Of a DNA stretch of 64,000 nucleotides, positions 6,026 through 40,769 are shown piece after piece. The first letter of the stretch is position 1, and each line of letters opens with the position of its first letter. This stretch comes from Neoechinorhynchus agilis (taxonomy: Eukaryota; Animalia; Acanthocephala), in NCBI GenBank assembly GCA_051530055.1, contig CM121341.1:9774784-9838783 (forward strand), given 5' to 3'. The position numbers and the translations under genes are program-made. The notes beneath the pieces were generated by a model. That model was given only the letters and a program-made list of their open reading frames with translations. It made no database searches and was not told the origin of the DNA.

Positions 6026-7600
6026 CTATTTATCCTTCCTCGCCCCAGCATAAGCTACCAAAGGGTCGAAGCATCCTGCAAAGTCGGCAACTTGGTCTTT
6101 CGAGAACACTGATCTACATTGCGTTCTTGGTCTATACCTCTCAATGATCTTATTCTTTTTATAAACAAGTCGATTAATCATCTCTTGTTCTTGTTTATCT
6201 TCGGAGTTTTCCACAAGTAATGCCATTTGCTTGATTATGTTATCGAATAGTGAATCAACGAAGTCAAGAATCTCACATAAACAAGGAATTTCTGTTGGAA
6301 GCTTGAGAGAATCCATGGTGCTCATCGACTGTTCATTGCTTTTCATTTTAGGGACGTGTTCAGTCATCGGGAGAATAGCCGGTTTCATTTTGCCCTTTTC
6401 CACTCTGGTGATTTCTGTGGTCTCGGCATTTTGGGTTGTTGTCTCTGAATTCACTACGGTCGTCTGCGTTGTTGTTTCCTCCGCTTTTGACTCACTTGTT
6501 TGCTCTTGGAATATTGATTCAGTAGTCACTTCAGTCGTCTGCATTGTCGTTTCCTCAGTCATTGTTTCCTCTGTCTTTGGCACGCTTGTTTGCTCTTGAA
6601 TTATTGATTCGGTAGTCACTTCAGTCGTCTGTATCGTCGTTTCCTCTGTTGTTGTTTCCTCAGTCATTGTTTCCTCTGTCTTTGGCTCGCTTGTTTGCTC
6701 TTCAGTTGTTGATTCTTTAGTCACTTCAGCCGTCTGTATTGTCGTTTCCTCTGTTGTTGTTTCCTCAGTCATTGTTTCTTCAGTCATTGTTTCCTCTGTC
6801 TTTGGCTCGCTTGTTTGCTCTTCAGTTGTTGATTCTTTAATCACTTCAGTCGTCTGTATTGTCGTTTCCTCTGTTGTTGTTTCCTCAGTCATTGTTTCTT
6901 CAGTCATTGTTTCCTCTGTCTTTGGCTCGCTTGTTTGCTCTCCATTTGTTGATTCTTTAGTCACTTCAGTCGTCTCCATTGTCGTTTCTTCTGTTTTAGG
7001 CTCGCTTGTTTGCTCTTCAGTTGTTGATTCTTTAGTCGCTTCAGTCGTCTGTATTGTCGTTTCCTCTGTTGTTGTTTCCTCTGTTGTTGTTTCCTCTGTC
7101 TTTGGCTCGCTTGTTTGTTCTTCGGTTGTTGATTCTGTAGCCACGCCACTAGTCTGAATTGTGGTTTCCTCTGTTGTTGTCATTGCCGATGAAGTCTTCA
7201 GATTATCGCAGAAGTGCACTTCACAAATTTCAATTTCTTCAGTTGAGAAGTCCGTTGTCGTTTCCTCTTCAAGCGATGCGACATCTTCTGTTGTTGACAC
7301 TTTCTGAAGATCTGAGAGTTTCCAAAATGTTGACCTATTCAATTGTTGATCGTTATCAGCAACATTTCCGATCAATATCTTATCGAGTTGATCATCAGGC
7401 AGAACCAAGACCACAGCCCGCTCATCGTTCGCAAACCGGTTCTTTACCAAGTCGTATCTGTCATAATTGGTGCTTGGTAATTTATCTCCTAGATAATCCG
7501 AAAAAATGTGCGGCGAAAGTTCTCTTGGTCGTGGACGAGCGGAAGTTATATTAAAAAAAATGATCAAAGAGATCACAGCACAAATTTCGAGTGTGTTCAT
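6026..7600 (-). CDS. Secreted mucin-like Thr/Glu-rich tandem-repeat protein (524 aa from ATG at 7600), single ORF
   Basis: ORF 6026-7837 starts at a non-ATG codon. First in-frame ATG at 7600 gives the signal-peptide-like MNTLEICAVISLIIFFNITSA, then a central TTEE/SEPK repeat array and a Cys-containing helical C-terminus. Confidence 0.8.
   Translation of the reverse strand: MNTLEICAVISLIIFFNITSARPRPRELSPHIFSDYLGDKLPSTNYDRYDLVKNRFANDERAVVLVLPDDQLDKILIGNVADNDQQLNRSTFWKLSDLQKVSTTEDVASLEEETTTDFSTEEIEICEVHFCDNLKTSSAMTTTEETTIQTSGVATESTTEEQTSEPKTEETTTEETTTEETTIQTTEATKESTTEEQTSEPKTEETTMETTEVTKESTNGEQTSEPKTEETMTEETMTEETTTEETTIQTTEVIKESTTEEQTSEPKTEETMTEETMTEETTTEETTIQTAEVTKESTTEEQTSEPKTEETMTEETTTEETTIQTTEVTTESIIQEQTSVPKTEETMTEETTMQTTEVTTESIFQEQTSESKAEETTTQTTVVNSETTTQNAETTEITRVEKGKMKPAILPMTEHVPKMKSNEQSMSTMDSLKLPTEIPCLCEILDFVDSLFDNIIKQMALLVENSEDKQEQEMINRLVYKKNKIIERYRPRTQCRSVFSKDQVADFAGCFDPLVAYAGARKDK
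6480..7260. repeat. Coding tandem repeat, 90-120 bp units built from 15-bp TEETT/TEETM sub-units
   Basis: Recurrent GTTTCCTCTGTCTTTGGCTCGCTTGTTTGCTCTTC; unit ESTTEEQTSEPKTEE(TM/TT)n TIQTTEVTK occurs about 7 times. Confidence 0.9.
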
Positions 7601-8149
7601 TGAATTCAGTTCTCGGGAAAAGACACCTTTTATTAATAGTCGATTTGATGGGCCGAGATTGGAAGTGTTTTTTCGACCGATGTTTATCGTTTTATGTTGA
7701 CTTTTTGTTATAATGACAAGTGTTTTCGGAACTAATAGAAATTTTGATACAATAACAACTGCTGAACCGGCTGGAATGTGCAGCGAAATGTTCAGAGCCG
7801 CAACCTCTGCATCTTCAATGGCGGCATCGATAATCACACTTTATTGGAGGTTAATTTTCATTTTGACCGCAGGCAAATTTAATTTATGATTGTCGTGTCT
7901 TCACGGAGAATCGCTGATAAGAAAGCGTTTGAGGATAAAATTCGTGGCTTCATAACGGAGTTGGACCTTGGTACAGCGATTTGATCGGATTAAGACTTCA
8001 AAACGCTTGTGAGTTTGTACGATTAGCAAAATTGTCGATTAGAACGCAGTCTGCGTACTTACGAAGTCACCATGCATCAAAAAAGTTTTCCGAAAAATGG
8101 GCATCGATTTCAATAGAATAATTCCGTCCTATATCCATTCTGCCTGCTC

Positions 8150-11460: not shown

Positions 11461-12099
11461 TTATATAACTGCGCAAGATGATGATCTGAAGATGAGCTCG
11501 AACAAAAAAAGTTGGAAAAATTCTTCGCATATTTCCAGTCGAAGGAAACAATCGTTTTGTGGCATTGACTCTCTTTTTCGAACTTGTTGTTTTCTATTGA
11601 ACTCTGGCGACCACGGTCTTGCTTTACACTCTTGGCGATTTTTTTGTCGTGTTTTTTCCGATTCAACATTATTTGATTTAGTAGTCTCTTGTGCAGGTCC
11701 CATCGCCATTCGCTCCCTTGCACATTTTGCCCTATAGTCATCCAATTGCTTGTCGAGAAACTCCAATGTAACACGAGGACGTTTTCTGATCGGAAAATCG
11801 TTCTGTTGTCGCAAAGCTCTTTTTCTAACTTGCTGCCTTCTATTGAGCTCTGGCGACAACGGTCTTGCTTCACGCTCTTGGCGATTGTCCTGTCTTGTTT
11901 TCCGCCAGTAATTTCGATATCTTTTATAATTCCGGTTGTGTGATGGTGGTCGATAATTGAAATTTGGATTGGCTCTCCATTGAGGTTCATAAAAATTATT
12001 TTCATTATCTTGCCGTCGCTGGCTAACATTTCGTGAGTGCCATGTTGAATGATCGCCTCGACGCTCGAAAACTGGCATTTGATTTTGGTGCGAAGACAT
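11461..12099 (-). CDS. Putative Arg/Asn-rich protein with a CHTOP/Aly-type UAP56-binding-like motif and an internal 40-aa duplication
   Basis: ATG at 12099, 212 aa. RPRVTLEFLDKQLDDYRAK resembles the FoP-duplication motif (CHTOP RPVLTKEQLDNQLDAYMSK, recalled). A paralog at 16975-17310 has LDKQLDDYMAK. Confidence 0.5.
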   Translation of the reverse strand: MSSHQNQMPVFERRGDHSTWHSRNVSQRRQDNENNFYEPQWRANPNFNYRPPSHNRNYKRYRNYWRKTRQDNRQEREARPLSPELNRRQQVRKRALRQQNDFPIRKRPRVTLEFLDKQLDDYRAKCARERMAMGPAQETTKSNNVESEKTRQKNRQECKARPWSPEFNRKQQVRKRESMPQNDCFLRLEICEEFFQLFLFELIFRSSSCAVI

Positions 12100-12249
12100 C
12101 TTGGCAGCCTGCTTATCAGAAAAAGGCCCTGAGAAACGGAATTCGAATCAATCCATGCTTTCAAATGCGTATTGAACACTTAGCTATTCCGATGGCGCGT
12201 TGATAAACTTAAAGAAACTGGTCAATTTCCTCGTTTTCCAATTGTCGTC

Positions 12250-13020
12250 TAGTAAATTAAGACACAAGATGAGAGAAAAAATAACGTCTAAAAGGGATAA
12301 GAATTCTTTGTTGAAGACAATGATCATAAAAGGATTCCACCGTATTGACCCTGGCTTTGGTCCATTTCATTGAAGGATCATTAAAGTCACCGACAATAAA
12401 GTCAATGCTATATTTAGGAAGCCCTTTTAAAATATGATTAACGTGAGGACGATGGACAAAACAAGGTTGAATATACAGATTAAAAAATGAATTGCCGATG
12501 ATTGAATAAAAGTTATAAAGAGAATACGACAATTCATTCCATGTTGAAAAATTGAGAAAGATTATATACCCTTTTAGATTTTTAGAATAAAAAATGAGAT
12601 TCTAGGAATATGATGCGTAATATCAGAGATTGGTCGCCCCAGCACAATTCCACTGTAACAAGCGAAAACTAGATTTTCCTGACCTTCGATTTTGAGCCAG
12701 GAATAAGGAAAGCAACTACAGAGTTAATATGAATGGATTGATCTTCGATGATATCTTTGACAATTTCGGAATCGTTCTCTATGAGCCCAATGAGAACGTC
12801 CTCACAAGCGGGCTCAAAAGAATTGGACCTCTTCAAGATGGAGGAAATGGGTCGGCGATAAATGATTCAAGTATGTCACGAAGATGGATGACCTGTGAAA
12901 TTAGTGCCCTCCAACAATCGATGATAACCCTCTAGCCAGTTCCTTTCTATCTTTTACGAATCGACAATAATACTAACCAATGCAGAAACCAACTACATGC
13001 GAGATTTATGGGTAGGAACA
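12250..13020 (-). mobile_element. LINE fragment (ORF1 C-terminus plus APE), same family as 23037-26882
   Basis: DVLIGLIENDSEIVKDIIEDQS aligns to DVMMDIDESTSEFVARIIETQS (ORF 23019). LQWNCAGATNL near 12640-12670; IDFIVGDFNDPS in ORF 12257-12532. Confidence 0.75.
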
Positions 13021-13024
13021 ATAT

Positions 13025-13606
13025 TGATTTTTCAGGTGAGCTCCTGCAAATATGTGATAACTCAAAGAGCTTGGTTAATTGGCGGATTGTTGCTTTTTGT
13101 TGTCAAAGTCACCGAGAGTATCTTCCGATATGCATAGTCCAGTGGAAAAGATATGTTATAAATCAAACAAAGGTCATAAGCTGCGAACAATGCAGAATGG
13201 CTCTGTTCGGAAAACTTGTAGATTCGCGACATTTTAATGCGTTTTCCCCGAACTGTATTTCATTACTTGATTCTAGCGAGCTCCAATTGCTTATTTCGGA
13301 TTCATTGAGTTGGAGCATTTGACAAAAGCCAATAAATAAGGACGATAAAATGGACTCGTAAAAGTGATAATTGGAAATCTTATCTGAAATCCAAAGCGGT
13401 TTTTCGAATGTAAGCATGCGATGTTGCCGTTAAATGAGGTTAAGAGCATTGCGACATATCAGATCAAAGAATGCCCTCCGATTTTGTTATTGAATAGGAC
13501 TTTATTGAGGAGAGTTGGCAAAAGACCAATGGTGAAACAATTCTTGAATGAGGTACAACTTTCGAAACACTCGTCTGGACCGTGGATGCTAAAAGAAGTA
13601 CATGAC
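13025..13606 (-). pseudogene. Endogenous totivirus-like RdRp fragment (C-terminal half), copy 2
   Basis: Near-identical to 15810-16203 over 13210-13606, which is contiguous with RdRp motifs A and B in the 16-kb and 31-kb copies. Confidence 0.8.
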
Positions 13607-13609
13607 AAG

Positions 13610-14490
13610 GTCACATTGAGAGAAACGAACAAAACCGCGCACAAAAAGCAAATAAAGAGTTTGTTCGAAAACAAAATCGATGGTTAAATCTTTTCTGGCC
13701 GCGGTGGTCGAGGATCGCGTAAAAATTGTGGATGTATCGTATGATAATACAAATGATAGCACAACTTCTAAGATGGTTTTAACATTAACCGAATCCAGAT
13801 ATATCCATGAACTTATTGGTGTAAACTTCAGGATTGCAAGAATACGAGCGGTGTTGTATGACTTGGCGCTGGCAGCTGATATGCAGGTAGTCGATACGAC
13901 AGTGGGTTTTTGTTGTTGAGTGATTTACAGAATAAACATTAGCACTATTAAATCATGATACGATTCTACGGTGGATCAGAAACGTGGACGGTAAAAAAGA
14001 GCAGAATTCCTGACCAATATAAATGGATTTTCAGTGGCAATGTAATTCGATACAGGGTCCGCTGAATCAATTATCAATAATTTGAAGGTAGCACAAAAAA
14101 TCAGGGCATTTTGGTGGAACAGAGATCGATAACTTAGGGTCCTACGATGTGCAGGTAACACTTGGTAAAAAACGAGATATCTCAGTATTTGTTATCGTTG
14201 GTGTGGGGCGACCGATATTCAGTCTACCGTGGATGCCAGCGGCCGACCTAAAGATCCCGGAGGCTCAAATATTTCGAGTGCACAATATTCCGGAAGACGA
14301 AGTTGTTGCCCAGGCGGTGGAAACTATGATTCTTAAGTATTTACCAATCCGATTCAATGACACCGCCGGCGCAGTCAAGAATGTTCGGGCTAGAAAATGA
14401 ACAAGAAATAATCTGGAAGGCTCGGAGGGTCCATTTGCGTTGCATGAAGCGCTAGAAGAAGAATTGGAAAGAATATTCAGCGATGGAATT
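13610..14490 (+). mobile_element. Gypsy-type LTR retrotransposon remnant (gag end, protease, start of RT)
   Basis: NINGFSVAM*FDTGSAESII (aspartic protease DTGS) near 14020-14080. PFALHEALEEELERIFSDGIPV near 14430-14497 is typical of the Mag/K02A2.6-like RT start. Confidence 0.55.
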
Positions 14491-14939: not shown

Positions 14940-15690
14940 AAGCACCCGGTAAATGATTATTTATTAAAGACGTTCTTCGAACTTCGTCAAGTTCATCATC
15001 AATTCTAAAATAAAAGTTTATTGATAGTTGCAACCTTATTAACCTCCCCGATGACTGATTTATTTGTACGAATTTTCGTCTGTATGCAGACCGCTTCAGC
15101 TATCTTGAATAAAACATAGTGAGTGTAGCTTGGGCAGAACTCGGGTGCCCGGGGTTGTTAGGCCCGCGGGTGATCTATCACCCCCCTGAGCTGGTCTTAG
15201 TTTATATGGAATATTCAGCTTCCAGCTTGGGACATTCCCCTCCATACAGTTGTTGTTTATCGTTACCGCCTCTTTGATTACCCTCCTTTTCCAGTCAATC
15301 TCGATCATGATCTGATGAGCATCCTCAAATCCGATTTAATGATTCGTTTTTACAACATGATTACTGATGGCGGATGACATATCTGCTCTGTGCACACAAT
15401 ATTTATGCTGGTCAATGCGCTTTTTTAGTCCTTGACTTGTTTGTCCAACATAATATTTTCCGCATTGTCTGCATGGTACTTTATAGTTTATACTTTTATC
15501 CTCTTGTTTTGGTTTCTTTTTGAATATACCCGCCAACTTCGTTGCTGCTTTAGAATATATTGACACCGAGTGGGTCTTGCATCTTCTTATAAGATGTTGT
15601 AATTTGTTCAGAGTTGCTTCATTGATGAATTTTGATTCCAAGAATATTTTCTGATTGGCGGTGGGTTTCGGGTTGTTTTTCGATGTCCAT
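14940..15690 (-). mobile_element. Penelope-like element 3' part (GIY-YIG endonuclease plus pseudo-LTR)
   Basis: ORF 15336-15641 INYKVPCRQCGKYYVGQTSQGLKKRIDQH, continuing in 15096-15308 RRVIKEAVTI. Hammerhead-like motifs follow. Confidence 0.85.
14966..15099 (-). ncRNA. Two degenerate hammerhead-ribozyme motifs in tandem
   Basis: Minus strand CTGAAGCG-GTCTG-cata-CAGAC-GAAAATTC (15070-15099) and TTGATGAT-GAACTT-gacg-AAGTTC-GAAGAACGTC (14969-15002). Perfect stem II, non-canonical cores. Confidence 0.45.
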
Positions 15691-16975
15691 GACTTTTCAA
15701 AAATGTCATTGCTTTTTGAAATAAGTTTATTAATCTATTTACGGACTGTTGCTTACTTTTTGTTGTCAAAGTCACTCAGAGTATCTTCTGCCCTGCATCG
15801 TCCCACAAAACTTGTAGATTCGCGACATTTTAATGCGTTTCCCCCGAACTGTATTTCATTACTTGATTCTAGCGAGCTCCAATTGCTTATTTCGGATTCA
15901 TTGAGTTGGAGCATTTGACAAAAGCCAATAAATAAGGACGATAAAATGGACTCATAAAAGTGATAATTGGAAATCTTATCTGAAATCAAAAGCGGTTTTT
16001 CGAATGTAAGCATGCGATGTTGCCGTTAAATGAGGTTAAGAGCATTGCGACATATCAGATCAAAGAATGCCCTCCGATTTTGTTATTGAATAGGACTTTA
16101 TTGAGGAGAGTTGGCAAAAGACCAATGGTGAAACAATTCTTGAATGAGGTACAACTTTCGAAACACTTCGTCTGGACCGTGGATGCTAAAAGAAGTACAT
16201 GACGCAGCGTATTTATGAAGGAAGTACCGCGTAGACCTGAACACAAGCCTTGCTTCACTTGCACAGGCTCGTTAAGGTCCGAAAATTTGATTGTGATGTT
16301 GAGCAATGCCTTGGAACACCAGTCTGCGGCTCTAACTTAATCATGGTGTCCATGCGAGGTTGCAAATATGCAGGACTGTATCGTTAAGGTGTGTTGGACG
16401 TTGAAATCGGCATAATCCAACATCAATGCGTGGCAATCGAGACTGTTAGAAACAGTCATCCTAGCGAGATGTCTCGTAGTAGATAGATGGGGCGAATTCA
16501 CGTGTTGCACCTCTTCAAGCTTGTTGAGTTGGCGTTCGAGGCTTTCTAAAACATACGTCATGAGTCGGAAATTTCCTTGCCCAACTCAAAATTCTCGCGT
16601 TAGCGCGTATGATCGGTTCAGCATCGATCCAGGCAAGCACGTCACTCGTAGGCAGATTCTCAAAATATATCTTCCCAGCTGTCATATCAACTCCTATAAT
16701 GTTTGTTTTGTAGTCGCCCGTGCTACCACCAGAAACAAATTTGTTCCTAGCTTGCACGAAAGCGTGCCAGTCCAGAGGAGCTGTTTTGGCGAAGGTGAAC
16801 AACTTTGCCAGCTCAGCTCAAAGACAAGTCTTGATGTGGAATAATGTATCAAACCCAGCCACGGCTTGAGCTCGACTTCCTCTAACCTGTTAGCGCGTTC
16901 CTGTTCCCAATTTGACCTGCTTATATTCCTTGAAGCAGCCATATGCCAGTAGTAAAATTGGCACAGCTCGCTATG
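15690..16975 (-). pseudogene. Endogenous viral element: totivirus-like (Ghabrivirales) dsRNA virus RdRp, frameshifted, most complete copy
   Basis: Collinear motifs: NWEQERANRL (16883-16912), FVQARNKFVSGGS (GGS at 16722-16739), FELGK (16576-16590), LDYADFNVQHT (16388-16420), GLCSGLRGTSFINTL (16205-16249) and a degenerate IHGPDEV (about 16164-16184). Confidence 0.9.
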
Positions 16976-17310
16976 GAGAGTCAATCGAAATTCTAATTAT
17001 CTACCGCCATCGCACAACCGAAATTATCAAAGACATCGAAATTACTGACGGGAAACAAGACGGGACAATCGCCAAGAGCCTGAAACAAGACCGTGGTCGC
17101 CAGAGTTCAATAGAAGGCAGCAATTTCGAAAAAGAGGGCCACGAACGCAAAATGATTTTCCGATCAGAAAACGTCCTCGAATGGCAGACATTGGAGTTCC
17201 TAGACAAACAATTGGATGACTACATGGCAAAATGTGCAAGGGAGCGAATGGCGATGGGACCTGCACAAGGGGCTACCAAATTAAATAACTTTTTCTAATA
17301 AAAGTCATAA
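16975..17310 (+). pseudogene. Frameshifted, 5'-truncated paralog of the 11461-12099 gene, in opposite orientation
   Basis: DNA similarity to the minus-strand 11670-11990. A 4-nt insertion before TLEFLDKQLDDYMAK shifts the frame. AATAAA follows the stop. Confidence 0.7.
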
Positions 17311-17989
17311 TAACGATGGATGATCGTGGAAGGCTGATACAGCAAATTGAACATTTTGAATGCATTAAGTGTAAAGCTTAATACCTGTTTGAAACTCCAT
17401 CCAAGGTGTCTACTGTGATCACTGAACAATTTTCCAGAATGCAGATTATAGACAATCAGTAGATGATTGCAATTTTAGATACGATCAATTTAAAAATAAT
17501 GCGACTCAGCATAATCGAAATATCTTCTAAAAGCGTTTAAAGTTCGAAATTTAATTCCCTGGGAATCCAAAGGAGCGGCATATTTGCGAATCAATTGAAA
17601 AAGCATAATAATTTTTCGAAAGAGAAAAAAGTTCAATCGCCTTCATCTCCCTTATCCAACACAGCAGTCAACGCTTTAGAGCGAGATGATGATGTGGCCG
17701 AACAACTCATGGACACTGTAGTCAGAAAACCGGCTAGAAATTTTAGATACCGCTAAAGGATTGGGTACAATGTCTTAGGAGTATAATCTAAAACCTGTTT
17801 TGGATAGTGAGAGATTAGCCTAATGATTATCTATAAAGAAGTCTGGGGATCCTTGAACGCAGAAACAACTGACTGGGTTAGTACTTGAATGATAGAAGCC
17901 CCTTAAATCACCGATCGCTTGACCTAAAGTTTCAATACCTACAAAAACAATTAGGTCAATCGCAGCTAAAGCTACCTGTTCAACTCTGA

Positions 17990-20900
17990 TGGAGATTGTC
18001 ACACGCACGCATGCTCTATAATCCTGGGACTATTCTCAGCTCGACCTGTGATGCTTCGAAAAATTTCAAGACGTCCGCCGAAGCAAGGTCCGCCGCGCCG
18101 GCTGTTTCGCTCGCTGGCGAGGGGGTGCTCAGTCTCCAATGCAAATCGGTCAAATGCAATGTTTGTCTTCGTGACTTCAAACCCATTCTCTGTGGTCTCG
18201 TCAGCTCCCACGATCAACATGGGTCGCATTGCCATGGATCTAGAAAACCTCCAACTCAGCCTGTCTCTCCGTCTTCATTGAATCCATCTAATCCAACCGA
18301 ACTCACAACATAGCCCACCTCCAGCTCTGATCGAGATGCTTTCACACGGTACCCGAATGATTAGGCGAATCCCGCGAGGCGCCAGGTCCTCCGTAGCATC
18401 CAAATTAGCATGCCTGATCGAGTGCAGTATACGAGATCCAACCGTACCATCTGACTGGTTCAACCTCCTCGCGTTTCCGAAAGCAGTCTTACGTGTCCCC
18501 ACACAAACTGCTGAAACCAACGAGAATCAATCGCTCAGTCAAAAAATTCGCAACAGGTCTGACGCTTTCGAGTCCTTTGAACAAGTCGATCATCTTGGAT
18601 GGCAGAGCCATCGCCGTAATGCTCCTCACGACCCGTACTCTCAACTCCGCGCGAAATGCTCCAAGAAGCTAGAGGACGGCGATCTGAGGGGCGCCGTTCG
18701 ACTTGTAAGCGGAACGGACCGCCTACTCGCGCCGAACAAGGACATCCTCGACTCCTTAAAATTGAAGCATCCTCCACGAAGACGGAGTTGCTTCAAGCCA
18801 AATTATGATCCGTCGTTCACAGAGCCCGACCGCGACCCCCTCATACCCATTACAGTCTCCACCGTCACTTCCGCTCTGATATCTTTTCCGCCATCGTCAG
18901 CTGGAGGGCATGATGGTTTGAGCCCTCGACACTTAGGGGATTTGACCTGCTTCTCTTCTGGAGCTCAAGGTACGCGATTGCTGAACGCAATCACCGAGCT
19001 CACACGCGTAATCATTCGCGGTTCCGTATCTCCTCCAGTCGCTCGTCTACTCTGCGGTACTAAGCTGATCGCTTTCACAAAAAAGGTGGAGGGGTTCGTC
19101 CCATTGCCGTGGGTTGTACCTTCCGTCGACTGGCATCCAAAGTCGCGTGTCAGTTCGCCACCGATCGATTGATCAACTCTTGCCGGTTCAATTAGGAGTC
19201 GGAGTTCCTGCTGGAGCCGAGGCGGCCGTACACTCAGCACGAGCGTATAGTCGAAATGGTATCAATAAGGGAACAGCTATGGTCAAGCTTGACATGGAGA
19301 ACGCGTTCAATTCAATATGCCGCACCGCGATGACAGAGGTTGTCCGCCAGCACATACCAGAAATCTACCAATACGTGTCCTTGTGCTACGACCAGTCCAG
19401 CATGCTGCTGTTTGGCGAGTTCCAGGTCGAATCAGCAGAAGGTGTTCAACAGGGTGATCCTCTAGGTCCTCTGCTGTTCGCATTGACGATCAATCATCTC
19501 GCCCACAGCTCTTCGTCAGATTTGTCGATCTGGTACCTCGACGACTGTTGCATTGGAGGGGAGATCGACCAGCTCATTCGCGACATCAAAAACATCTCCG
19601 AAATGGGTGCCGATATCGGACTATTCCTGAGAACGGACAAATGCGAAATCATTTCGGACGACCAAGAGGATGCATCGAGACTGCTCACCGCACTGCCCGG
19701 AGCAAAGACAACTGCAACCGACTCAGCTGACATTCTCGGGTCTCCAATCGGTAACCTGTCTAACCTGGAAACGTTCCTTTCAAAAGCCATCGATCAATTG
19801 CGGCTCACTGCCGCCAGGCCCTTGCACATCGCGCGACACGACGCTCTGTTCATAATATCACGATGTCTGTCGCTACCGAAGATTGCGTACCTTCTGAGGA
19901 CTTCTCCATGCTTCAGGTCAGTGCTCACAAGGGATTTCGACAACTGCGTTCGATCAACCCTGTCAGAAGTCCTTAACCTATGACTGTCCGACACAGCATG
20001 GAAACAGGCGATCCTTCCCATTCGATTCGGCGGTCTACCGAAGTAGCAATTCCTGCCTTTTCGTCGTCGATCTCGGTCTCTTCAGACCTGGTGCTAAGAA
20101 TCATCCCACCACACACTCGACACGAGTCACATCCACCGCCTGAACTGATCGAAGCGCACGCTCAATGGACGTCAGTGTTCGGGCAAGTCGTTCCAACGGA
20201 AACAAACTCCCAAAAACGTTGGACTACCTTGCTCCACACTGCGTATTATCAGCAACTTCTTAACTCATGCTCGTCTCCCAACGATAGAGCTCGTCTCCTG
20301 GCAGTCTCAGCTCCACACTCCAGCGACTTCTTGAAGGCTTTCCCGATCACGGCTGTTGGCACGAGGCTGGATGACCAAGCCATCACCGTCGCGGTGGGAC
20401 TTCGGTTGGGCATCGAGTTCTCAGGCTCATATACATGTCGATGCGGTGGGACAGTGAATTGGTAGGAAACTCACGGTCTTGACTGCAAGCGTTCAAATGC
20501 TCGCCACGCGTGGCACTCAGCAGTCAACCGGATAACCAAGGAAGCCCTCTAAACGGCCGGTTTTCCCGCTCGACCCGAACCAGTCGGACTCTCCCGTAAC
20601 GACGGTAAACGCCCTGATGGAGCCCTCCCATGGTGCTCCGGGAAAATACTGGTTTGGGATTTTACTTGCCCCAACACGCTCGCAGCATCCCACTTACGGG
20701 ATGCCACCTCAAAAGCGGGAGCAGTCGCGAGCTTCAGCGAGGAAAAGAAGCGGCATAAGTACTCCTCGCTCGATGAGCATCAATATATGTTCATCCCGAT
20801 TGCGGTGGACACACTGGGATGCCTCGGAAAAGAAGGCTATTATTTCCTCTCCCGACTAAGAAAATGCTAAAACATGCCGCCGGCGATGTGCGCTCCAGCA

Positions 20901-21664: not shown

Positions 21665-21875
21665 ATGCCGAATACGCGACAGACTGCTAAGAAAACGATG
21701 GGAATTGTGCTTCCGCAACGTAATGGTCAAGATAAACAAGCAAAGACGCCACGCACTGAATTTGTTAAAGTACAGAAAGTTGCTGCCAATGAAGAAGGGG
21801 GAGGCTGCACAATCAGACACCGACGTTTCTGCAGTCGTCGAACAGGACGAGGCGCAACTAGAATAAGAAAGGGAA
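21665..21875 (+). pseudogene. Possible decayed histone H3-like 5' fragment
   Basis: MPNTRQTAKKTMGIVLPQR vs H3 MARTKQTARKSTGGKAPRK. In a shifted frame ALNLLKYRKLL vs ALREIRRYQKSTELL. No histone fold. Confidence 0.35.
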
Positions 21876-23036
21876 ATCACACCACCTACAATCAAAAACC
21901 GGATGCAGTTCACATGGTTAAACAGGCTCAACTCTTAATTGGCAATGCATCTGTATCATTGCTCACTTTGTTAAAAAAATAGAAATCGGTATATGAATGC
22001 TCAATAAACTTTTTCGGGATTGCATTATGAGGCTCAATTGATGAAACGAGATTGTGTTTCAGAAGAGCTTCGAAATTTCCGTCGTTGAAGGAAATCCTAC
22101 AAATGTTCAACATGAGAGTGCTGTTTGACATGAGTTCAAACACCAAATTCCACGAGTCACTTCTCCATTTTAAGTGTAAGGAGAAATGGAATCAAGCGAC
22201 ATTTTGGCCCGATCTTAATCCGTGGAAATCAAGAATCCAGATGGATTTCTCCGCGTCTTATCGGGTTGGAAATAATCGAACAAAATCTTCGCATGGATCA
22301 AATTCGTGGCGAAGCGTTCATTTTTATTCAACAAGACAATTAAATCTTAAAGAATTCGTCAATGCAACAAATTGATTTCACAAATTATGCCCAATATCCA
22401 TTACATCTTAATATCGACGTTGCCATAAAATTTCGAGAAAAAGTACTCACATTGAGGCGCTAAGACACCTTCGCTCGTCCTCGGTACGAACGCAGAAATC
22501 AACAATCATCTCCAAATATCGCTCGACTTATCGACGAACAAAAAGAACGACAAGAGGAACGCGAATGCTGCGATAGAAAGCGGAGGGCGTTTTGGAAGGT
22601 ACGAAAAAACAGAAGAATTCACGGTCTGGGTAATCATTTAGCGCCCGTTCAAATTTTTTCGTAATTTGTGAAAATTAGCGATTTAGTCATTGTTCGTGAA
22701 GAAGTTCAACATTGAACAAGCGGGCAACTTCAACTTAGCCGTCAACGAAATGCGGAAGCCGAGATGGTCCGCAGGATCGACACGCAAGGATCGAGTGCCC
22801 AATGAGGAGGTGTGAAAGCTGTTTGTTGTCGATCCGATCGAGGAGGCAATCGCTAAGAGGCGGATGCGATGGTACCTGCAGGTGACACAAGCGGATGAAG
22901 ACGTCTGAGTGAAGAGCGCATGGAGAACCGAGCTCGAGCGCTCAAGAAGAGGCGGGCGGACAGTGTGAGTGGAGATCCCAAGACGCTGTGAAAGTGTTAT
23001 GGTGGACATGATGTCGTCATGCCCTCGACCGGGTGG
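21851..23036. repeat. Segmental duplicate of 34763-35943 (family A segment plus RTE 3' fragment)
   Basis: Near-identical ORFs at offset 12912 (21928 vs 34840; 22052 vs 34964). Confidence 0.95.
22731..23036 (+). mobile_element. RTE-clade LINE 3' fragment (second copy at 35642-35943)
   Basis: EMRKPRWSAGSTRKDRVPNEEV...PIEEAIAKRRMRWY matches the RTE C-terminal consensus. Confidence 0.7.
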
Positions 23037-26000
23037 GAAGAAGCCTGCAACAAACTTCTCATGATCATGCAAGCTTGTCTCACTGAGGCATTGTTGGCTT
23101 TCGAAAGGAAGATCTGTACCCTAATCGATAATTTGACAAACCTTCCAGCTCTTCTCTCCTCTTGCTTATCAAAACAAGATCCAGCAAAACTCAAAAGATC
23201 CGTTACGTCTGACGAGGATGGAAGAGTAGCAAAAAAGTCAAATGGTGGATCTCGCTCTAATGAAGAGGAAGATGTTATGATGGATATTGATGAATCAACT
23301 TCAGAATTCGTAGCCAGAATAATCGAAACCCAATCCAGGCTAATTGATAGCGGAACAGCCAACCTGATCTCAAATGCCAATTCAAGGAAGCCTTGACTCA
23401 ATGGCTCAGGAGAAGGTAGGGAATCTTAGGGTGTTGCAGTGGAATTGTGGGGGTGCGACCAACCTTTCTAAACTCTCGAGATATCTACCTAGAATTTCTA
23501 TTGTGCTCATTCAAGAATCGAAGAGTGTCTTAAATATAGATCAACTCTTTTCTCATTTACCTCATTTAAACTCTTCGGCTTTTATCTCTTTCGTCTCTCC
23601 TCCTTATGAACCTAATTCACAAGGCCTAATTTCTATCTTTCATTCCTACCTCGGTCCCTCCGTGGTCACGTCCTATTCTTGCAAGGAATTGTCGTATAGT
23701 ATCTTCAAAAACTTTTACAATAAGAAATTTTTCTCACTTTGCGAACATATATATAAGGCCAGGTTTTATTCATCGTGCCCATGTGAAGGAAAAAATCAAA
23801 TGGCTTTTAAGGGCTAACATTGATCTGATTGTGGGAGATTTCAATGATCCTTCTTTAAGATGGTCTCGGGCAATTGTAAACGCAGTCAAACCTTCCCACT
23901 CTCTTATCTTGCCCAATAATCCGTCAATCCACAATATTACCACCAACAGTCATTCCTTCTTGGATCTAGTTATATTGAAAAATGTTTTGAATCTTTCAAT
24001 CGATTATGGTCACCAAGTTTCCACCTTCGACCTCTTAGGACATGACATTTTAATTTGGTCCTTGGGTCACATTGACAGACTACGCAAGGTGTATCATTTA
24101 TCACCTTTAAATTTAGCGTTCTTTCGGCTAGTCTGCGAGAACATTTTCTCACGCTCACTTTTGGACTGCAATCTGTCAGATTTCTTACCTTTAGCTAACT
24201 CCTTCGTCAATAAGGCCGCTAATACTTTTTTATGTCGTAATGTTAAAACTTTCTCACGCCCTTATGTGAGCCGATCACATCGTTTTCTAGGACGCCAACT
24301 TTATGCTGCCAAAAGATCGGGGGATACTCTTTTATGCAAAACTCTTTCGAGCCTTCTTTGGACTGCCCGCTGCCGACAGCAACAACGCAGAGATGCAATC
24401 TCTCTTGCGACATTCAACCCTTATTCTTCCAAATGGTGGCGTACCTTTTCAAATAAAGGCCAAACACCTTGGAAGTCGAAACTAGCTGCCTGGTTAAAAT
24501 CCACAACATTGGGGGATATTCTTTTTCAAATTTTTGACTTTCATTCCGCGGGCTCGACTACCAACGTGCCATCAATTTGTTTTCGCAAACTACTTGGTAA
24601 TCGCACGGATATCACCTTAAAAGATATTCTCGAAGTATGGTCCACAAATCCGAAGTTGGGATCGTCTAATGGCTGCCCAGGGACAAAAATCTTCACACTG
24701 CATCCTAAAAGCTGTGTATCCCTCTTAGCCAAATCTATGCTGCATTTCTCCCATTACGCTTGGAGAGAGATTAATGTCTCTAGACGTATTTTCTTGGTTA
24801 AAAATGGCAGGAAGGCCATTGTTGAACCAAAAGACGTTCGCCCTATCTCGCTTCAAAATCCCCTTGTAACCATTTATGAACGCACACTTGCTAATAGGTT
24901 GAGATCCTTCATTAATGAACATAATTGCATCTCTTCAAATTGTCATGGTTTTCTAAAAGATAAATCAGTTCACTCTGCCTTAGCAGTTATTTACTCCAAT
25001 TTTTCTTGCTCTTACAAGCCCATGCGAGCTATGCTAGCCGTGGACATTTCTCAAGCTTTTGATAAGATTTCACTCTCTATTATTGAGTTGCTTGAATTTT
25101 TCAGTATTCCTCACAATTTAATTACACGTATCCACAATATTTTATTTACAAAATCTTTTTACTTAGAAGACGACATTTCAAAGACACTATATTATCCTTC
25201 CAATGATGTTCCACAGGGGTCACCTCTGTCACCTATTCTCTTCCTTTTGGCGTCACAATATTTGATTCAAAATTTTAAAATAAGGGCCTCTCTCACTTGC
25301 TATGCGGATGACTTGACTTTTGTCATCTCCGCCCACAGAGCAGCCAAAATGAAAATCCTGATTGGTCAATGTATTGATTATCTTAACTCCGTTTTACCAA
25401 AAATGAATTTATCTTTGAATAGGTCGAAGTGTTTATGTCTTTTTAAAGTTCGCTCATGCCGAATCCGGAAAGATCTTAAATCTTTTTTTAACAATTTAAT
25501 GAATAACCCTGTCACCTCTTCCTCAGGGTTTTCCAACGCTCCTCTTAAAATTAGAATTTTGGGCCACACTTTTACTTCAAATCTATCACCTAGAACATAC
25601 TTAGGTAAAATGAAAAAATGCTCAGTTTAGCTTTTAAAAAGACTAAGCGCGCCATCAAACTCGGTCTGAATGTTAAGCAATGCCAAATTATTTATAAAAG
25701 TTGGTGCATTCCAGGCCTAGTCTTTTTTCCCCGGAACAAAAGTCTTTGTTTGTCAAAACCTTCTGCGACAACCTTAACACCCTGTCTTTCTCCTGGGCCG
25801 GAGAGTTGAGGAATTTCAGTTTCAAAAGGTTGGTAAGATGGACTACTTAACCGTGTCACTAGAATGGCTATGATGTTGTAAAACTTCTCAATATATATTA
25901 CCATGATGAATAAATCTTGTTGTTTTACCAAATCTCTTGCAAACGGATCATCTCAGCCGATGTACCTGTTGAATCGACCATCATTCTGGCAGGTAATCAC

Positions 26001-26882
26001 TCCTTTTTTCGCACGCTGCCTTCTAAGTCTATTTTCTACATTGCGGACAAGGAGATTGACTTCTAGACAACGCTTGGTTTAGTTGAGGTACCTCCTAATC
26101 TTGCGAGGGAGCTTCTCTCCAAAAAAATGATCGGTCAAGGATGCTAATTTCTTAAGAATGCTGAGACACGGTTCTATCGTGGTGAGTCTGTTAGGCTCTC
26201 TGGTATGCGCCTGCCGATGTGGTTTTCGTTTGGGCATTCTTGCGCTTACTCTGGGATTATCACTCCCGAGACCACTAAGGACGGCCGTAACAATTGGTGT
26301 GTATTAAGGGAATGTAGTGTTCAAGACATGACAATCGATTTTCTACTCGCGACTGAGGATATGGTACTCCGTTCCCTATCTCCTGGGTACTGCTGGGATC
26401 GTTCGTTCCATCTTGTCACTTTGGGTGACGTTGACCCTCTAGCTAAGATGGAGTTTTCCCATATCCTCAACGTTGCCAGCCCTCTAGCTCCGATGTTTCG
26501 TCGGCGCTCAGAGAAAATGGCATATTTGACTCTGTGTGGGACCTGTGCCACGTCTCACAAACGTGATGGTTCTCCGGCGACGTTCGCAAGGCTAAGATCA
26601 CTTTTCGCTCGAGATGATAATCCGAACGTCACTTCTCCTCCAAATGGAGCGATAGAGCTTGAAGGCACTATCAATCGTTTCTGGGCTACTCAACCGTTCG
26701 AAATACTCTGGATCCGTATGCTCGTAATTGAGTTTTTTCATTCTATAGCTGGAAACTCAATTCGTTGGACAGTGGGCGCTAATGACTACAATGCTCCTTT
26801 TGATGGGAGCGTATCTGCGATCATGGAGCAATGGTTTTCGGACCCAATCGAGCACCTTTTCCGCCTGGCGTGCACTGGTTAA
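23037..26882 (+). mobile_element. APE-RT LINE: ORF1 C-terminus, APE, RT and a long unassigned C-terminal extension; frameshifted
   Basis: VLQWNCGG, LIQE, VGDFND, LDLVI (APE). RPISLQNP, DISQAFDKI, VPQGSPLSPILF, YADD, ILGHTF (RT). The frame of ORF 26205-26882 continues the preceding frame through one stop near 26145. Confidence 0.85.
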
Positions 26883-27810
26883 CTTCCTTGATCTTGTCAC
26901 TTCTAACTGGATCGTTTGCAGTATACACTACGAGAAGGTCAAGTAAACATCTATCGGCATGAAGCTTGTGATCATTCGAAGATTCTGGAGAAGATTTTGC
27001 GATATTCACTACATTAAGAACATTGACAGCTACCTTAGATAATACACGTTCAAATGATTCCTCGTTGTATTCAATAAAGTCAGCGAGGAACGGTTTATCC
27101 AGCAAGTTTCCAAACGTATTTTCGTACATGAAAAATGTCTTTCTTGCAATTAATCTTGGCAAATCTTTTCTTCGATTGTGCCGAGGGTAAAGAGAATGTA
27201 AATGGACACTTTAGATTGACTAAATCGGTAGACTCGATAAATGGACTGGATGTCATTCGAAGGATTCCAGGAAGGTTTGAATATTACAACGCGATTAGCC
27301 GCCTGAAGATTCAGCGCAATTTTCCCATCCTGAGTAGAAATTAAAAACAATCGCAAACGTCGGTTGCTTGTTTTACTGATCTCCGCAACGCGGGCTTTTC
27401 TATCGATTCTTATTATAGAGGTTTGCCGATAAGGACAAACACGATCGATAAACCGCTATTCTTCATTATCTCCATCGTGACGTTCAAGATTATCTCCTCC
27501 GGATTTGCAAAATTTATTGCGTTTCCTTATCATAGCATCCTGCTTTTCTTTACGATCAGACCACAAAAGGAACGGATGGGCGCAAATCCGTTGCACAATG
27601 ATATAGAAGTTCAAAAGATCTCTATGTGATTGTGTTTGTCCTTTATAACGAACCAATAATCGATATAATTCTGCTTGCATCTTTGAAGGACGAATACTGA
27701 TAACATATTCATATCGATTTGGGGGATAAGGTTGGAGACAAGTGCTGTCTCGTCTATGGACGCAACCGCCAAGCATTTCGTGAAGAATATGAGTTCTCTT
27801 CATCATGAGT
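26883..27810 (-). pseudogene. ATRX: ATRX/XNP-1 SNF2 helicase C-terminal fragment, intronless, frameshifted and internally deleted
   Basis: MMKRTHILHEMLGGCVHRRD and RLFLISTQDGKIALNLQAANRVVIFKPSWNPSNDIQSIYRVYRF match the ATRX-specific wording of the helicase motifs. Confidence 0.85.
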
Positions 27811-28149
27811 TTAACATCATACCACGTAGAATCAGCGTTTAAGCCGTTTTTGATTGGTGTAATAAATCAGTTGTTAAATTCACACCTCGTACCTAAATAG
27901 TTCAGTTTTATGAAATGTACCATACAATGATACTCTGCTAAATTATTTTGCAGCGGAGTCCCGGTCATCACAATGCGCCTTGGAGTTCGGATGTTGCAGC
28001 GTACTTTATAAATGTGCGTAAGTTCATTCTTTAAAATATGGCCTTAATCACAAACCAACAAATCGGGACCAAGATTTAAGAGTGCTTGACGAATTTGATT
28101 ATCATCACTTTAAAAGAATGATTTTAAAGCTGACGCTGCTTTATCTCAT

Positions 28150-28700
28150 GAACGATTGTGAAAGGTAAGGGAAGAAAGATTTTGTGTTGGAAGTGACAGC
28201 AGAGGATCCCGGTGTTGTGTGTTCATTTGGTGACTACCCTCACCAATTAGGCGGAATCCACAACATACAGCTAGCGGACGGAGTGGTCCCGTTGACTGAC
28301 AGTATCAAGCACAATGCGTGGCTCTCGTCGCTCAAGAGTGTACCGATGTTCATCGGAGGCGCACGGCCCGAGCACTACTCGCCTGCACACGCGAAGGCGG
28401 TGCAAGTTCTTTGCCATGCGAGAGTTTCTCCAGTGAGGCTGGTAATGAGGATGGCGGCAGTCTTTGTCGCCCAAGTGCTTCTGGAACTGCATTTCGAGGG
28501 AAGGCGGCGAATTGGTTGGGGGCAGCATTTGCGGGCTTCCAACCTGAATTCGGCTGGGAACCATGGCTATGTGCTGTTGAAGGCCGCTGTAGATTCAAAA
28601 GACATTATCTACATTCCGGCACAGGTTGGAGATGGCAAGTCAGTTGTGGCAGCGATGGGCTTGGCAGTGAGTCGTGAGTTCCCATTCTCATAAGAAATGA
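28150..28700 (-). other. GC-richer unassigned segment, possibly a decayed gag-like zinc-knuckle region
   Basis: Frameshift-repaired CLI-C-QSTG-H-SVR-C resembles a CCHC knuckle. Weak. Confidence 0.2.
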
Positions 28701-29650: not shown

Positions 29651-30239
29651 AAGCATGAAAATTAAAGTAAGGAGTAATGTTAAGTTTTTCAGCGGCAACA
29701 GGTTCTGTACTAAATCAAAACGAATGAGAAATCGATAATCCTGTAAAACGCCTAAGTTTATGGCCTATAAGTTAGGATTTGAAAGATAGTGTAAGTCCGT
29801 TTCGATTATCTACTTGCTATTGTTAAACAACCATTGATCAACCTAGTGATCGCTATGGTCGTCCTGAGTTTCTGGTAATAAATTATTATTTTTTCGCGAT
29901 CAACTCCGATGTTCCACGTAAATTTCAGCGTCAATCGCGAAAACTGGATAAAACGCGAAGACATCTTGGCAGCCTGCTTCTGCGTTGTTCAAAAATCACG
30001 AAGACAAGAACAAAAATCAAAGTATTCCCAAGAAACGAAATCTTAGCTCATAGAACAAAAATTAATATAAATTGTATAAAATGATAAAATGAAAATATTA
30101 GGTATCAGAAAAAGGCCCTGAGAAACGGAATTCGAATCAATCCATGCTTTCAAATGCGTATTGAACACTTAGCTATTCCGATGGCGCGTTGATAAACTTA
30201 AAGAAACTGGTCAATTTCCTCGTTTTCCAATTGTCGTCT

Positions 30240-31010
30240 AGTAAATTAAGACACAAGATGAGAGAAAAAATAACGTCTAAAAGGGATAAGAATTCTTTGT
30301 TGAAGACAATGGTCATAAAAGGATTCCACCGTATTGACCCTGGCTTTGGTCCATTTCATTGAAGGATCATTAAAGTCACCGACAATAAAGTCAATGCTAT
30401 ATTTAGGAAGCCCTTTTAAAATATGATTAACGTGAGGACGATGGACAAAACAAGGTTGAATATACAGATTAAAAAATGAATTGCCGATGATTGAATAAAA
30501 GTTATAAAGAGAATACGACAATTCATTCCATGTTGAAAAATTGAGAAAGATTATATACCCTTTTAGATTTTTAGAATAAAAAATGAGATTCTAGGAATAT
30601 GATGCGTAATATCAGAGATTGGTCGCCCCAGCACAATTCCACTGTAACAAGCGAAAACTAGATTTTCCTGACCTTCGATTTTGAGCCAGGAATAAGGAAA
30701 GCAACTACAGAGTTAATATGAATGGATTGATCTTCGATGATATCTTTGACAATTTCGGAATCGTTCTCTATGAGCCCAATGAGAACGTCCTCACAAGCGG
30801 GCTCAAAAGGATTGGACCTCTTCAAGATGGAGGAAATGGGTCGGCGATAAATGATTCAAGTATGTCACGAAGATGGATGACCTGTGAAATTAGTGCCCTC
30901 CAACAATCGATGATAACCCTCTAGCCAGTTCCTTTCTATCTTTTACGAATCGACAATAATACTAACCAATGCAGAAACCAACTCTATGCGAGATTTATGG
31001 GTAGGAACAA
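30240..31010 (-). mobile_element. LINE ORF1/APE fragment (duplicate of 12250-13020)
   Basis: ORF 30246-30521 is identical to 12257-12532. Confidence 0.75.
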
Positions 31011-31014
31011 TATT

Positions 31015-31827
31015 GATTTTTCAGGTGAGCTCCTGCAAATATGTGATAACTCAAAGAGCTTGGTTAATTGGCGGATTGTTGCTTTTTGTTGTCAAAGTCA
31101 CCGAGAGTATCTTCCGATATGCATAGTCCAGTGGAAAAGATATGTTATAAATCAAACAAAGATCATAAGCTGCGAACAATGCAGAATGGCTCTGTTCGGA
31201 AAACTTGTAGATTCGCGACATTTTAATGCGTTTTCCCCGAACTGTATTTCATTACTTGATTCTAGCGAGCTCCAATTGCTTATTTCGGATTCATTGAGTT
31301 GGAGCATTTGACAAAAGCCAATAAATAAGGACGATAAAATGGACTCGTAAAAGTGATAATTGGAAATCTTATCTGAAATCCAAAGCGGTTTTTCGAATGT
31401 AAGCATGCGATGTTGCCGTTAAATGAGGTTAAGAGCATTGCGACATATCAGATCAAAGAATGCCCTCCGATTTTGTTATTGAATAGGACTTTATTGAGGA
31501 GAGTTGGCAAAAGACCAATGGTGAAACAATTCTTGAATGAGGTACAACTTTCGAAACACTTCGTCTGGACCGTGGATGCTAAAAGAAGTACATGACGCAG
31601 CGTATTTATGAAGGAAGTACCGCGTAGACCTGAACACAAGCCTTGCTTCACTTGCACAGGCTCGTTAAGGTCCGAAAATTTGATTGTGATGTTGAGCAAT
31701 GCCTTGGAACACCAGTCTGCGGCTCTAACTTAATCATGGTGTCCATGCGATGGTTGCAAATATGCAGGACTGTATCGTTAAGGTGTGTTGGACGTTGAAA
31801 TCGGCATAATCCAACATCAATGCGTGG
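31015..31827 (-). pseudogene. Endogenous totivirus-like RdRp fragment (motif A to C-terminal region), copy 3
   Basis: Contains LDYADFNVQHT and GLCSGLRGTSFINTL (the latter in ORF 31448-31699). Confidence 0.85.
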
Positions 31828-31852
31828 TAAGATAATCTCCCGTGCAGTGGTT

Positions 31853-32004
31853 GATAATGTTTTTCAAAAGCGCGTCTAAATTAAAGTGAAGAACTAAGAG
31901 TGAGTACACGAATGCGTTTTCAAATCACTTGTGTTGATTTGGTGGATAATGTTTTTCAAAAGCGCGTCTAAATTAAAGTGAAGAACTAAGAGTGAGTACA
32001 CGAA
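31853..32004. repeat. Perfect 60-bp direct repeat, 92-bp period
   Basis: 31853-31912 = 31945-32004. Confidence 0.95.
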
Positions 32005-32361
32005 AGCAATTTGACCACCAACTCATTCAATGTCAATTCACCAATATCGACAAAGTCAATAGGTGAAGTTCAACGCGTCTGCGGCAGAGGCAAAGTCATG
32101 CAGAGCGTCAGCCAACAAAGTATTATTATTGTAATTTGTTCTAAGAAGTCACACAAACATAACAAAAACAACTGCGGTTTATAATGTTCTTATTGCCAAA
32201 GATATATTGCAACATTCGATGAAAACAACAACGCATGGGTATTTCAAGGTGTATATATTTAAATAAATAAACAATTACCGCTTTGATAAAAGGATAAAAG
32301 CGTTCCTCTTTACATTTAAAAACTAATAACAAAAGTTGTGATTTGACCATCGAGGAAATTA

Positions 32362-33879: not shown

Positions 33880-34512
33880 TTGCCTCTAATCCTTTTGCCG
33901 CTGCTGCAATTTTTAAAAACTACCGCTAAAAGATGAAGATGATCGTAGTACTATAAATTCTGCTCGGAATTGGAGTTTATTAGTGATAGTAACTGCGCAA
34001 ATGCATGTTTTAATAATTCGCCGGTAGCCTTAGCGCAAACAAGTGCTCGTAGAGAATTAAAAAACATCTCGATGATGAAGCATCAGATCATGCAACATAG
34101 CTACGATGTAAACAAATACAACAAAAGGGCATTAGACATTAGCGAACTTGAAGGACGTCCAAGAGCTTTAGCTGGAGAGCAATATGCGATTTGTGTGAAG
34201 GCACTGATTGAAGAGGATTATCGTCAAGCAATCGTCGCACACTCAGGTCCAATTGCAAAGGCCGAAAATAGAGGACTCCTGCGATTGTGAAGAAGCTGAA
34301 ATACTTCTGCGTCTCAAATACTTTGAAATCTTTGACGATCGGCTTTCGGAAGGCGCTTTGCATTCAAAAAGGTTAGAAGCGCATCTCAGTAAGGATGAAA
34401 TTCCAATAAAAGTTGAGAGGAAAAATAGAAGTTTGTGTAGTCGTTCGTGGTGCATTAAAATACTCCAGTGCCAAATTGATTTTTAGCTGTCTTCGTTTCT
34501 ACTGCGATCTTT
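33880..34512 (+). repeat. Decayed unknown coding repeat (family X); other copies on the minus strand at 37640-37990 and 44790-45070
   Basis: Shared QRPKIEDSCDCEEAEILLRLKY...SEGALHSKRL in ORFs 34208, 37728 and 44762. Confidence 0.75.
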
Positions 34513-35943: not shown

Positions 35944-36236
35944 GATACACGGAAGTATCTGTGTGCGCGTATACGTTGATGTGTGTGAGTGGGTGTGTTT
36001 TGCTTTTATTTGGGTCAGAATACTACACGTCCTCCAGCGAGTCGGTGGCAGAACGGAGAAGAACGAAGACGAAAGCCGAAATTGCTGAAAAGAACGACCT
36101 CTTAAGTTGCTGAACAATCGCTAGATTGTAGAATGGACACGAATAGTTACATTTTGAGCAGTGAACTCCTTCATTTTATAAGGCACAAACCAGTGATTCC
36201 CGGCCTTTGCTTCGTTGAACGTACTGAACCTCACAC

Positions 36237-40320: not shown

Positions 40321-40329
40321 CGATCGAAA

Positions 40330-40767: not shown

Positions 40768-40769
40768 AC

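Follow-up and report, generated by a model that had tools for sequence, protein, structure and literature searches.

The 64,000-nucleotide stretch of the Neoechinorhynchus agilis genome analyzed here (hereafter, the window) raises the question of whether this acanthocephalan carries the remains of a dsRNA virus polymerase in its chromosome, and if so, how much of the gene is preserved, from which viral lineage it comes and how it came to lie among host repeats. We found a 769-bp decayed fragment of a Ghabrivirales RdRp on the minus strand (16,204-16,972; hereafter, copy A), which covers approximately 28% of the polymerase and ends at motif B. The proposal of the earlier note that a decayed endogenous RdRp of this order resides in an animal genome is borne out by Pfam and tblastn matches, frameshifts, a stop and linkage to host DNA, each of which is presented below, and several of its details are revised.

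A decayed RdRp fragment on the minus strand

Copy A consists of three collinear main pieces in differing frames (16,972-16,862, 16,838-16,596 and 16,570-16,205), with an additional frame used by a short stretch near 16,590, a stop in frame at 16,337-16,339 and a motif A-to-B distance about 7 residues shorter than in its relatives; no open stretch with viral homology exceeds ~80 codons. The polymerase had been read from seven peptides, all of which are indeed present on the minus strand in the claimed order and in changing frames (starting at 16,912, 16,772, 16,631, 16,590, 16,420, 16,249 and 16,181). Five of them are recovered as parts of an RdRp by alignment to intact relatives; FELGK, which falls between two aligned pieces in a short unaligned interval, matches the motif of the relatives by eye only, and the seventh, HGPDEV, is non-viral. 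The viral region had also been drawn too widely, at 15,690-16,975, with homology being confined to the extent of copy A given above.

The piece spanning motifs A and B (16,205-16,561, stop read as X) matches the Pfam family RdRP_4 with 33.7 bits (E 2.5e-8; cut-off 22), and single open pieces of copy A give weak matches to the same family (14.9 and 11.4 bits). A phmmer search of 1.84 billion representative proteins returned 136 matches at E <=0.001 and 27 at E <=1e-10; five of the 136 show 5-9 short, repeat-like aligned stretches each. In the opposite direction, tblastn of the three best intact matches (P0003, P0005 and P0006) against the window gave collinear alignments in three pieces (E 2e-41 to 5e-42, that is, ~1e-41), which cover two upstream pieces absent from the original query. 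The RdRP_4 and toti-like matches on which the earlier note had staked its reading are thus both present. A profile of 39 intact full-length relatives (999 positions, of which copy A spans 271-553) scored the pieces at 28.4, 49.2 and 135.4 bits, in order 5' to 3'; the last score is circular, the profile relatives having been found with that very piece, and the two upstream scores and the Pfam match are independent. The best score of this profile in the rest of the window, outside the two viral loci (copy A and the duplicate described below), is 5.3 bits, and the best of 200 shuffled versions of the region reached 5.2 bits.

The best intact relatives are unnamed and 42-51% identical in protein over the matched pieces, which agrees with the earlier claim of a lineage lacking a named close member; the searched representatives are clustered at 50% identity, such that closer relatives could be hidden. 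No match was returned by a word-indexed protein search with the motif A-B piece or by an Atlas search with the upstream piece of copy A, and a PDB search retrieved only picornavirus 3D polymerases (E ~0.2 with the piece and 1e-6 with the profile). One tblastn alignment extended the viral homology upstream into 16,973-17,122; we rejected this extension, as the profile is negative there and the stretch is a high-copy host repeat.

Truncation at motif B

The earlier note had taken HGPDEV for a degenerate GDD, i.e., motif C, set off from motif B by a shortened interval. Neither part of this reading survives: HGPDEV lies only 8 codons past motif B, versus ~28 residues from the end of motif B to GDD in the relatives, it falls inside a non-viral repeat with four copies in the window (unit U, see below), and a sub-profile of the post-motif-B region (motifs C-E) scores no higher than -1.6 bits downstream of copy A and 4.0 bits in the window as a whole. 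The same sub-profile recovers three of five control proteins (P0008, P0026 and P0034, with 51, 78 and 107 bits), the remaining two of which end or diverge shortly past motif B. What had appeared as a shortened interval is therefore a truncation at motif B. GDD is present in P0003, P0005, P0006, P0008 and P0034, which belong to the same clade as copy A; the absence from copy A of this motif C, which is characteristic of Ghabrivirales, is owed to the truncation and bears on its function, not its origin. With motif C onward lost, copy A cannot yield an active polymerase.

We likewise searched the window for other viral genes. Comparison with 38 ORFs from 19 viral loci gave nothing outside the RdRp loci except a match at E 0.08, and a profile of nine ORF1 proteins scored at most 1.9 bits, leaving the window without a recognizable capsid gene. 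Unit U was considered as an RdRp C-terminus or a capsid and rejected, as it matches neither the RdRp nor the ORF1 profiles.

Repeats, duplicates and neighboring genes

Unit U is a 397-bp repeat (15,807-16,203) that is fused directly after motif B, and its four copies in the window illuminate the structure of the locus. One of these (copy C; 13,211-13,606) is virus-free and diverges from copy A exactly at the viral start, with a 99-codon plus-strand frame (13,388-13,687) spanning the point of parting; going by this comparison, copy C likely represents the virus-free state of the unit. Another (31,200-31,596) adjoins copy B, a 234-bp minus-strand segment (31,597-31,830) in which the motif A-B end of copy A is duplicated; it has the same unit U junction and only 2 differences from the viral part of copy A. 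This unit U is part of a 1,494-bp segment (30,103-31,596) that differs at 6 positions from the virus-free 12,114-13,606. A partial inverted copy (copy D; 49,198-49,488; 95%) has no viral part. Pfam searches of copy C and its surroundings in six frames found no family for unit U, and Rfam returned nothing above chance over 11,000-34,500.

On its upstream side, copy A abuts host flank V (16,973-17,288, plus strand), to which it is antisense and which belongs to a multi-copy host family (86% to 11,669-11,980). Flank V has a weak match to FoP_duplication (17.8 bits, under the cut-off), which we take to be a Chtop/ALYREF-like tail; the FoP_duplication-like family occupies 11,461-12,147 (minus) and 16,973-17,298 (plus), with a read depth many times single-copy. 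Downstream of unit U lies a high-copy, Penelope-like GIY-YIG end (15,096-15,734, minus; Pfam GIY-YIG 16.3 bits, under the cut-off; E 2e-12 to the GIY-YIG gene at 33,066-33,458). At the end of this piece sits a short element (14,943-15,017) with a depth of ~1,400x in sequencing run X8 versus 17x for single-copy sequence, fold-back joints and no Rfam match. A decayed Penelope-like element also lies beside copy B (32,347-33,458, plus; GIY-YIG 29.1 bits, above the cut-off); its reverse transcriptase piece was recognized by eye, without a Pfam match, and a 68-bp direct repeat (31,848-31,915 and 31,940-32,007; 97%) separates it from the end of copy B. Further reverse transcriptase elements are recognized by RVT_1 at 19,069-19,983 and 23,630-25,630, and recent local duplications (21,852-23,035, 34,509-35,944, 37,989-41,241 and 45,596-47,552; 91-99%) surround non-LTR retrotransposon fragments. 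Downstream of copy C is a decayed look-alike of a retroviral-type aspartic protease (14,040-14,400, plus; DTGS by eye, no Pfam match).

The remainder of the window includes both recognizable and orphan genes. A Trm112 gene (58,430-58,846, plus) is 100% identical over 130 aa to an N. agilis protein from a 19.4-Mb contig, its single further match being at 47%. SNF2-family helicase fragments occupy 27,150-27,866 (minus; Helicase_C 38.8 bits), and a 604-codon frame (6,026-7,840, minus) is mucin-like, with Thr/Glu-rich tandem repeats of 15, 105 and 120 bp periods. Three related hydrophobic genes (50,346-51,029, 54,014-54,631 and 56,806-57,489, plus) probably code for membrane proteins; the first, the sole one scanned against Pfam, has no match, and two of them lie within a 1.2-kb duplication at 96%. 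Three GC-richer open frames of 174-337 codons (26,148-26,882, 28,169-28,693 and 36,464-37,477, all plus) lack Pfam matches and are possibly additional viral inserts. As viral genes, they were set aside on account of this lack and of the lack of a viral locus for 28,169-28,693 or 36,464-37,477; an Atlas search with the last returned no match, and a single-sequence structure model of the first has a pLDDT of 32.

Linkage to the host chromosome

Of nine sequencing runs under one species label, five of the six that are indexed hold 86-90% of the sampled words. The sequence is present in all five of these (two studies) and in the raw reads of a third study, and we compared four runs from the three studies (X1, X2, X5 and X8), one of which may be the source of the assembly. 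Contigs with zero differences cross the boundaries of copy A: one from X2 (15,935-17,246) spans both junctions, two from X5 (15,992-16,949 and 16,924-17,247) span one junction each, and one from X1 (16,174-17,232) spans the upstream junction. In the raw reads of X8, the unique viral part is covered ~17x, which equals the depth of the single-copy flank (17,516-17,649; 17x), the part common to copy B is covered 28-36x, and unit U is covered 63-73x; these steps of ~1:2:4 match the copy numbers in the window. The contig depths in X1 are 149 for the viral part, 104-142 for single-copy flank contigs and 384-472 for unit U. The depths in both runs fit the copies in the window, such that these make up nearly all genomic copies at >=90% likeness.

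Together, junction-crossing contigs without a mismatch, a viral depth equal to that of the single-copy flank and a host Trm112 gene in the same window confirm the linkage to host DNA that the earlier note had posited. Decay and duplication further imply that copy A would have been inherited through the germ line. None of the runs with the sequence is listed as RNA, and four are guessed to be so, X2 and X5 among them. In these two, the depth of unit U does not exceed that of the unique part, in contrast to the DNA runs; this may hint at transcripts, contig depth being a poor measure. The N. agilis assembly itself is 46.2 Mb in size and Hi-C scaffolded, with three main scaffolds and contaminants removed; viruses are not discussed in the body text of its publication, as far as that text is available (PMC12690905).

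Affinities of copy A

Names were checked for 30 of the 136 phmmer matches, ten of these having been picked for their short length. Four of the named matches (ranks 2, 6, 24 and 32) are hypothetical proteins of the acanthocephalan Pomphorhynchus laevis on contigs of 62-198 kb, and one is from the copepod Caligus. The P. laevis proteins (P0004, P0008, P0026 and P0034) are toti-like RdRp fragments, with 55-58% identity among three of them; the gene model of P0034 fuses the viral piece with a mitochondrial ribosomal protein L28 domain. The three best intact matches are proteins of 1,027-1,040 aa from unnamed Logan contigs of 6.3-6.4 kb, with P0003 being 37% identical to P0005 and P0006. Of the 55 proteins listed by a profile search, those with a name come mainly from toti-like viruses of mosquito or other arthropod samples, including the Culex vishnui subgroup totivirus (Spicivirus shichi, Spiciviridae); a scan of JGI metagenomes added 2 distant loci. 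The parallel with yeast L-A virus drawn by the earlier note holds for the order of the motifs, but L-A is not among the nearest relatives returned, the nearest being arthropod toti-like viruses.

Two pieces of copy A, which fill 16% and 25% of the columns, were entered separately in phylogenetic trees under LG+G4 without a mixture model: a quick tree of 58 rows and two careful trees of 28 and 31 of these rows (30 and 27 redundant or long-branched rows omitted). Phylogeny had been suggested as a check by the earlier note, and copy A groups with toti-like viruses in all three trees. In each of them, we found an eight-row clade in which a copy A piece stands together with all four P. laevis proteins and all three intact viruses (SH-aLRT 100 in the quick tree; 100/99 and 100/100 in the careful trees) on a stem of 0.72-0.82. 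N. agilis and P. laevis belong to different classes, Eoacanthocephala and Palaeacanthocephala, respectively. A grouping of copy A with four mosquito viruses is rejected (p-AU 0.018), and so is a topology in which the five worm rows form a clade that excludes the intact viruses (p-AU 0.005); these p-values are optimistic, as both groups were chosen after the trees had been inspected. With the worm-only clade rejected, the intact viruses nest among the worm rows, as repeated integration predicts. The end branches of copy A measure 0.87-1.0 versus 0.40-0.66 in the three intact viruses.

The worm clade shares a branch of 23 rows with Spicivirus shichi (support 92/93, and 85/80 in the second careful tree), and in these protein trees it is apparently closer to arthropod Spiciviridae-related viruses than to the other named viruses found. 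Two loci, L008 and L012 (7,951 and 8,086 bases; ORF1 with 11-12% each of Pro and Ala), fall outside the branch with Spicivirus shichi, and their lengths presumably match the two spiciviruses that gave the family its name; in that case, the worm clade would lie within the span of Spiciviridae. We accordingly place the clade provisionally near or within Spiciviridae, the branch with Spicivirus shichi being moderately supported.

Origin of the locus and alternative explanations

Copy A is a truncated, frameshifted Ghabrivirales RdRp fragment joined to host repeats, and we consider it probable that it is the defunct remnant of a dsRNA virus lineage infecting acanthocephalans. To our knowledge, dsRNA viruses have neither a DNA stage nor an integrase, and their inserts consequently arise by reverse transcription of viral mRNA by host retroelements. 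Copy A would thus go back to a viral mRNA that was copied into germ-line DNA by the reverse transcriptase of a host retrotransposon, inserted among repeats and then decayed. We attribute the step to such an enzyme because the window includes several reverse transcriptase elements, with Penelope-like pieces next to copy A as well as copy B. The identity of the integrating enzyme is a guess, as the locus showed neither a target-site duplication nor a poly(A) tail, and no point at which virus and retrotransposon are directly joined. The old insert beside repeat V would have lost its downstream part when a later rearrangement joined motif B to unit U; copy B would be the product of a subsequent, recent local duplication. 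As the damage to copy A is greater than 0.4% divergence would produce, its integration is probably older than the unit U junction, though gene conversion among the copies or errors of reverse transcription could give the same picture. Related viruses would have entered the P. laevis genome separately, and the tree pattern fits several such integrations from a diverse circulating clade. The infection of worms by this clade is deduced from the endogenous copies; all further relatives with a name were obtained from arthropod or mixed samples, and the authors of the P. laevis assembly behind the four proteins caution that their sample may have included further species (PMC12548735).

An extension of this account, which would add to rather than replace it, holds that the fragment is maintained as antiviral memory in a piRNA cluster and yields antisense piRNAs against a living cognate virus. 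According to the available text of PMC12256650, N. agilis lacks a cellular RdRP and possesses PIWI genes as well as piRNAs that occur in clusters and with a ping-pong signature, and the window is rich in decayed retroelements and local duplications. Elsewhere, most planthopper toti-like elements yield 24-29 nt RNAs (PMC10636211, as far as available), and in Aedes ovaries an EVE is described to limit its cognate virus through piRNAs (PMC7522710, likewise). However, the closest intact viruses are, at the identity given above, probably too distant for piRNA pairing, and the longer end branches of copy A are consistent with drift from any cognate virus. Hence, we regard maintained memory as unlikely, and copy A is most probably carried along passively in a transposon-rich region, where it may be co-transcribed with its neighbors into piRNAs. 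A wider scenario, in which a living acanthocephalan clade related to Spiciviridae includes the three intact genomes, was endogenized repeatedly in two classes and is stored at this locus as a piRNA cluster, seems to us doubtful, if slightly less so; if true, it would be the first virus-piRNA system of a parasitic spiralian without a cellular RdRP.

It is still less probable that the virus belonged to an arthropod intermediate host or another associated organism and that only its cDNA reached the worm germ line. Named relatives do come from mosquitoes and other arthropod samples, fragments are annotated in a copepod and a sand fly, and acanthocephalan larvae develop within mandibulate arthropods (PMC12690905, in the text available). 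Yet the worm-containing clade is set apart by its long stem and includes no named arthropod sequence, the copepod fragment is placed elsewhere, the grouping of copy A with mosquito viruses is rejected by the AU test, and divergent copies in two worm classes make replication in the worm the simpler account.

An assembly artefact or contaminant DNA is hardly credible. The region is repetitive, one of the compared runs is possibly the source of the assembly, and the depth in X8 (17x) reaches about half of the 33x that 1,523 million letters would give if they all derived from a 46.2-Mb worm genome; against this, runs of three studies contain the element, both junctions are crossed without a mismatch and the depths match the flank and the copies. 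Moreover, dsRNA viruses lack a DNA stage through which they could contaminate, and frameshifts and a stop would not occur in the polymerase of a live genome. Least credible of all is a domesticated viral gene whose protein is still made, as is described for one co-opted planthopper toti-like element (PMC10636211, in part), given the open stretch of ~80 codons at most, the several frame changes, the stop and the missing catalytic motif C.

Significance

Toti-like endogenous elements are common in arthropods, making the kind of element found here ordinary and its acanthocephalan host not. For acanthocephalans, the literature searched (most subscription journals lying outside its scope) yielded rhabdovirus-like elements of P. 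laevis and nothing toti-like, whether virus or element; the words 'virus' and 'viral' are absent from the P. laevis genome paper by term search (PMC7310846), and no other viruses infecting P. laevis have been described, according to the accessible parts of PMC12548735. The host phylum and the clade thus appear new within this literature, although the sequences may have been listed earlier. Through copy A, four P. laevis proteins that are unlabelled and the intact genomes of three unnamed viruses come together in one clade with a likely host phylum, meaning that intact genomes of a likely acanthocephalan dsRNA virus clade are already in public data. This offers a tangible starting point in the search for a first dsRNA virus of thorny-headed worms, known as pests in fish farming, and the piRNAs and small-RNA data of N. 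agilis make EVE-derived piRNAs testable outside arthropods, in a parasite.

Comparison with known systems

Yeast L-A virus (Orthototiviridae) shares its order, Pfam family and motif order with copy A, L-A being absent from the 55 listed proteins and from the trees. Among endogenous elements, copy A resembles known toti-like ones in being a frameshifted RdRp fragment in an animal chromosome, often a multi-copy one, and differs from them in its acanthocephalan host, in preserving the RdRp only to motif B and in the lack of a capsid in the window. Rhabdovirus-like RdRp elements of P. laevis are likewise RNA-virus polymerase fragments in an acanthocephalan assembly; these, however, derive from negative-strand viruses (Mononegavirales) and lie on unplaced contigs, as reported in the available part of PMC12548735. 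Ghabrivirales are absent from the main text of that paper, and the five toti-like P. laevis accessions were not found in the parts of its supplement that were searched.

The closest known systems are those of Spiciviridae (Alphatotivirineae, Ghabrivirales) and the unclassified Stinn virus, Hattula totivirus 2 and Hubei toti-like virus 9, which belong to the same RdRP_4 subfamily as copy A, and the relatives in this group share a motif C context of the HQGDDVW type. Spiciviridae are described as having one dsRNA segment with an upstream PArp/capsid ORF and a downstream RdRp that is translated by way of a -1 frameshift (PMC7150801, in part; their placement is also drawn from part of PMC12779748), a layout of which copy A preserves a piece of the RdRp. 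What distinguishes the worm clade from these viruses is its own long stem, with P0003 being ~28-33% identical to the named viruses.
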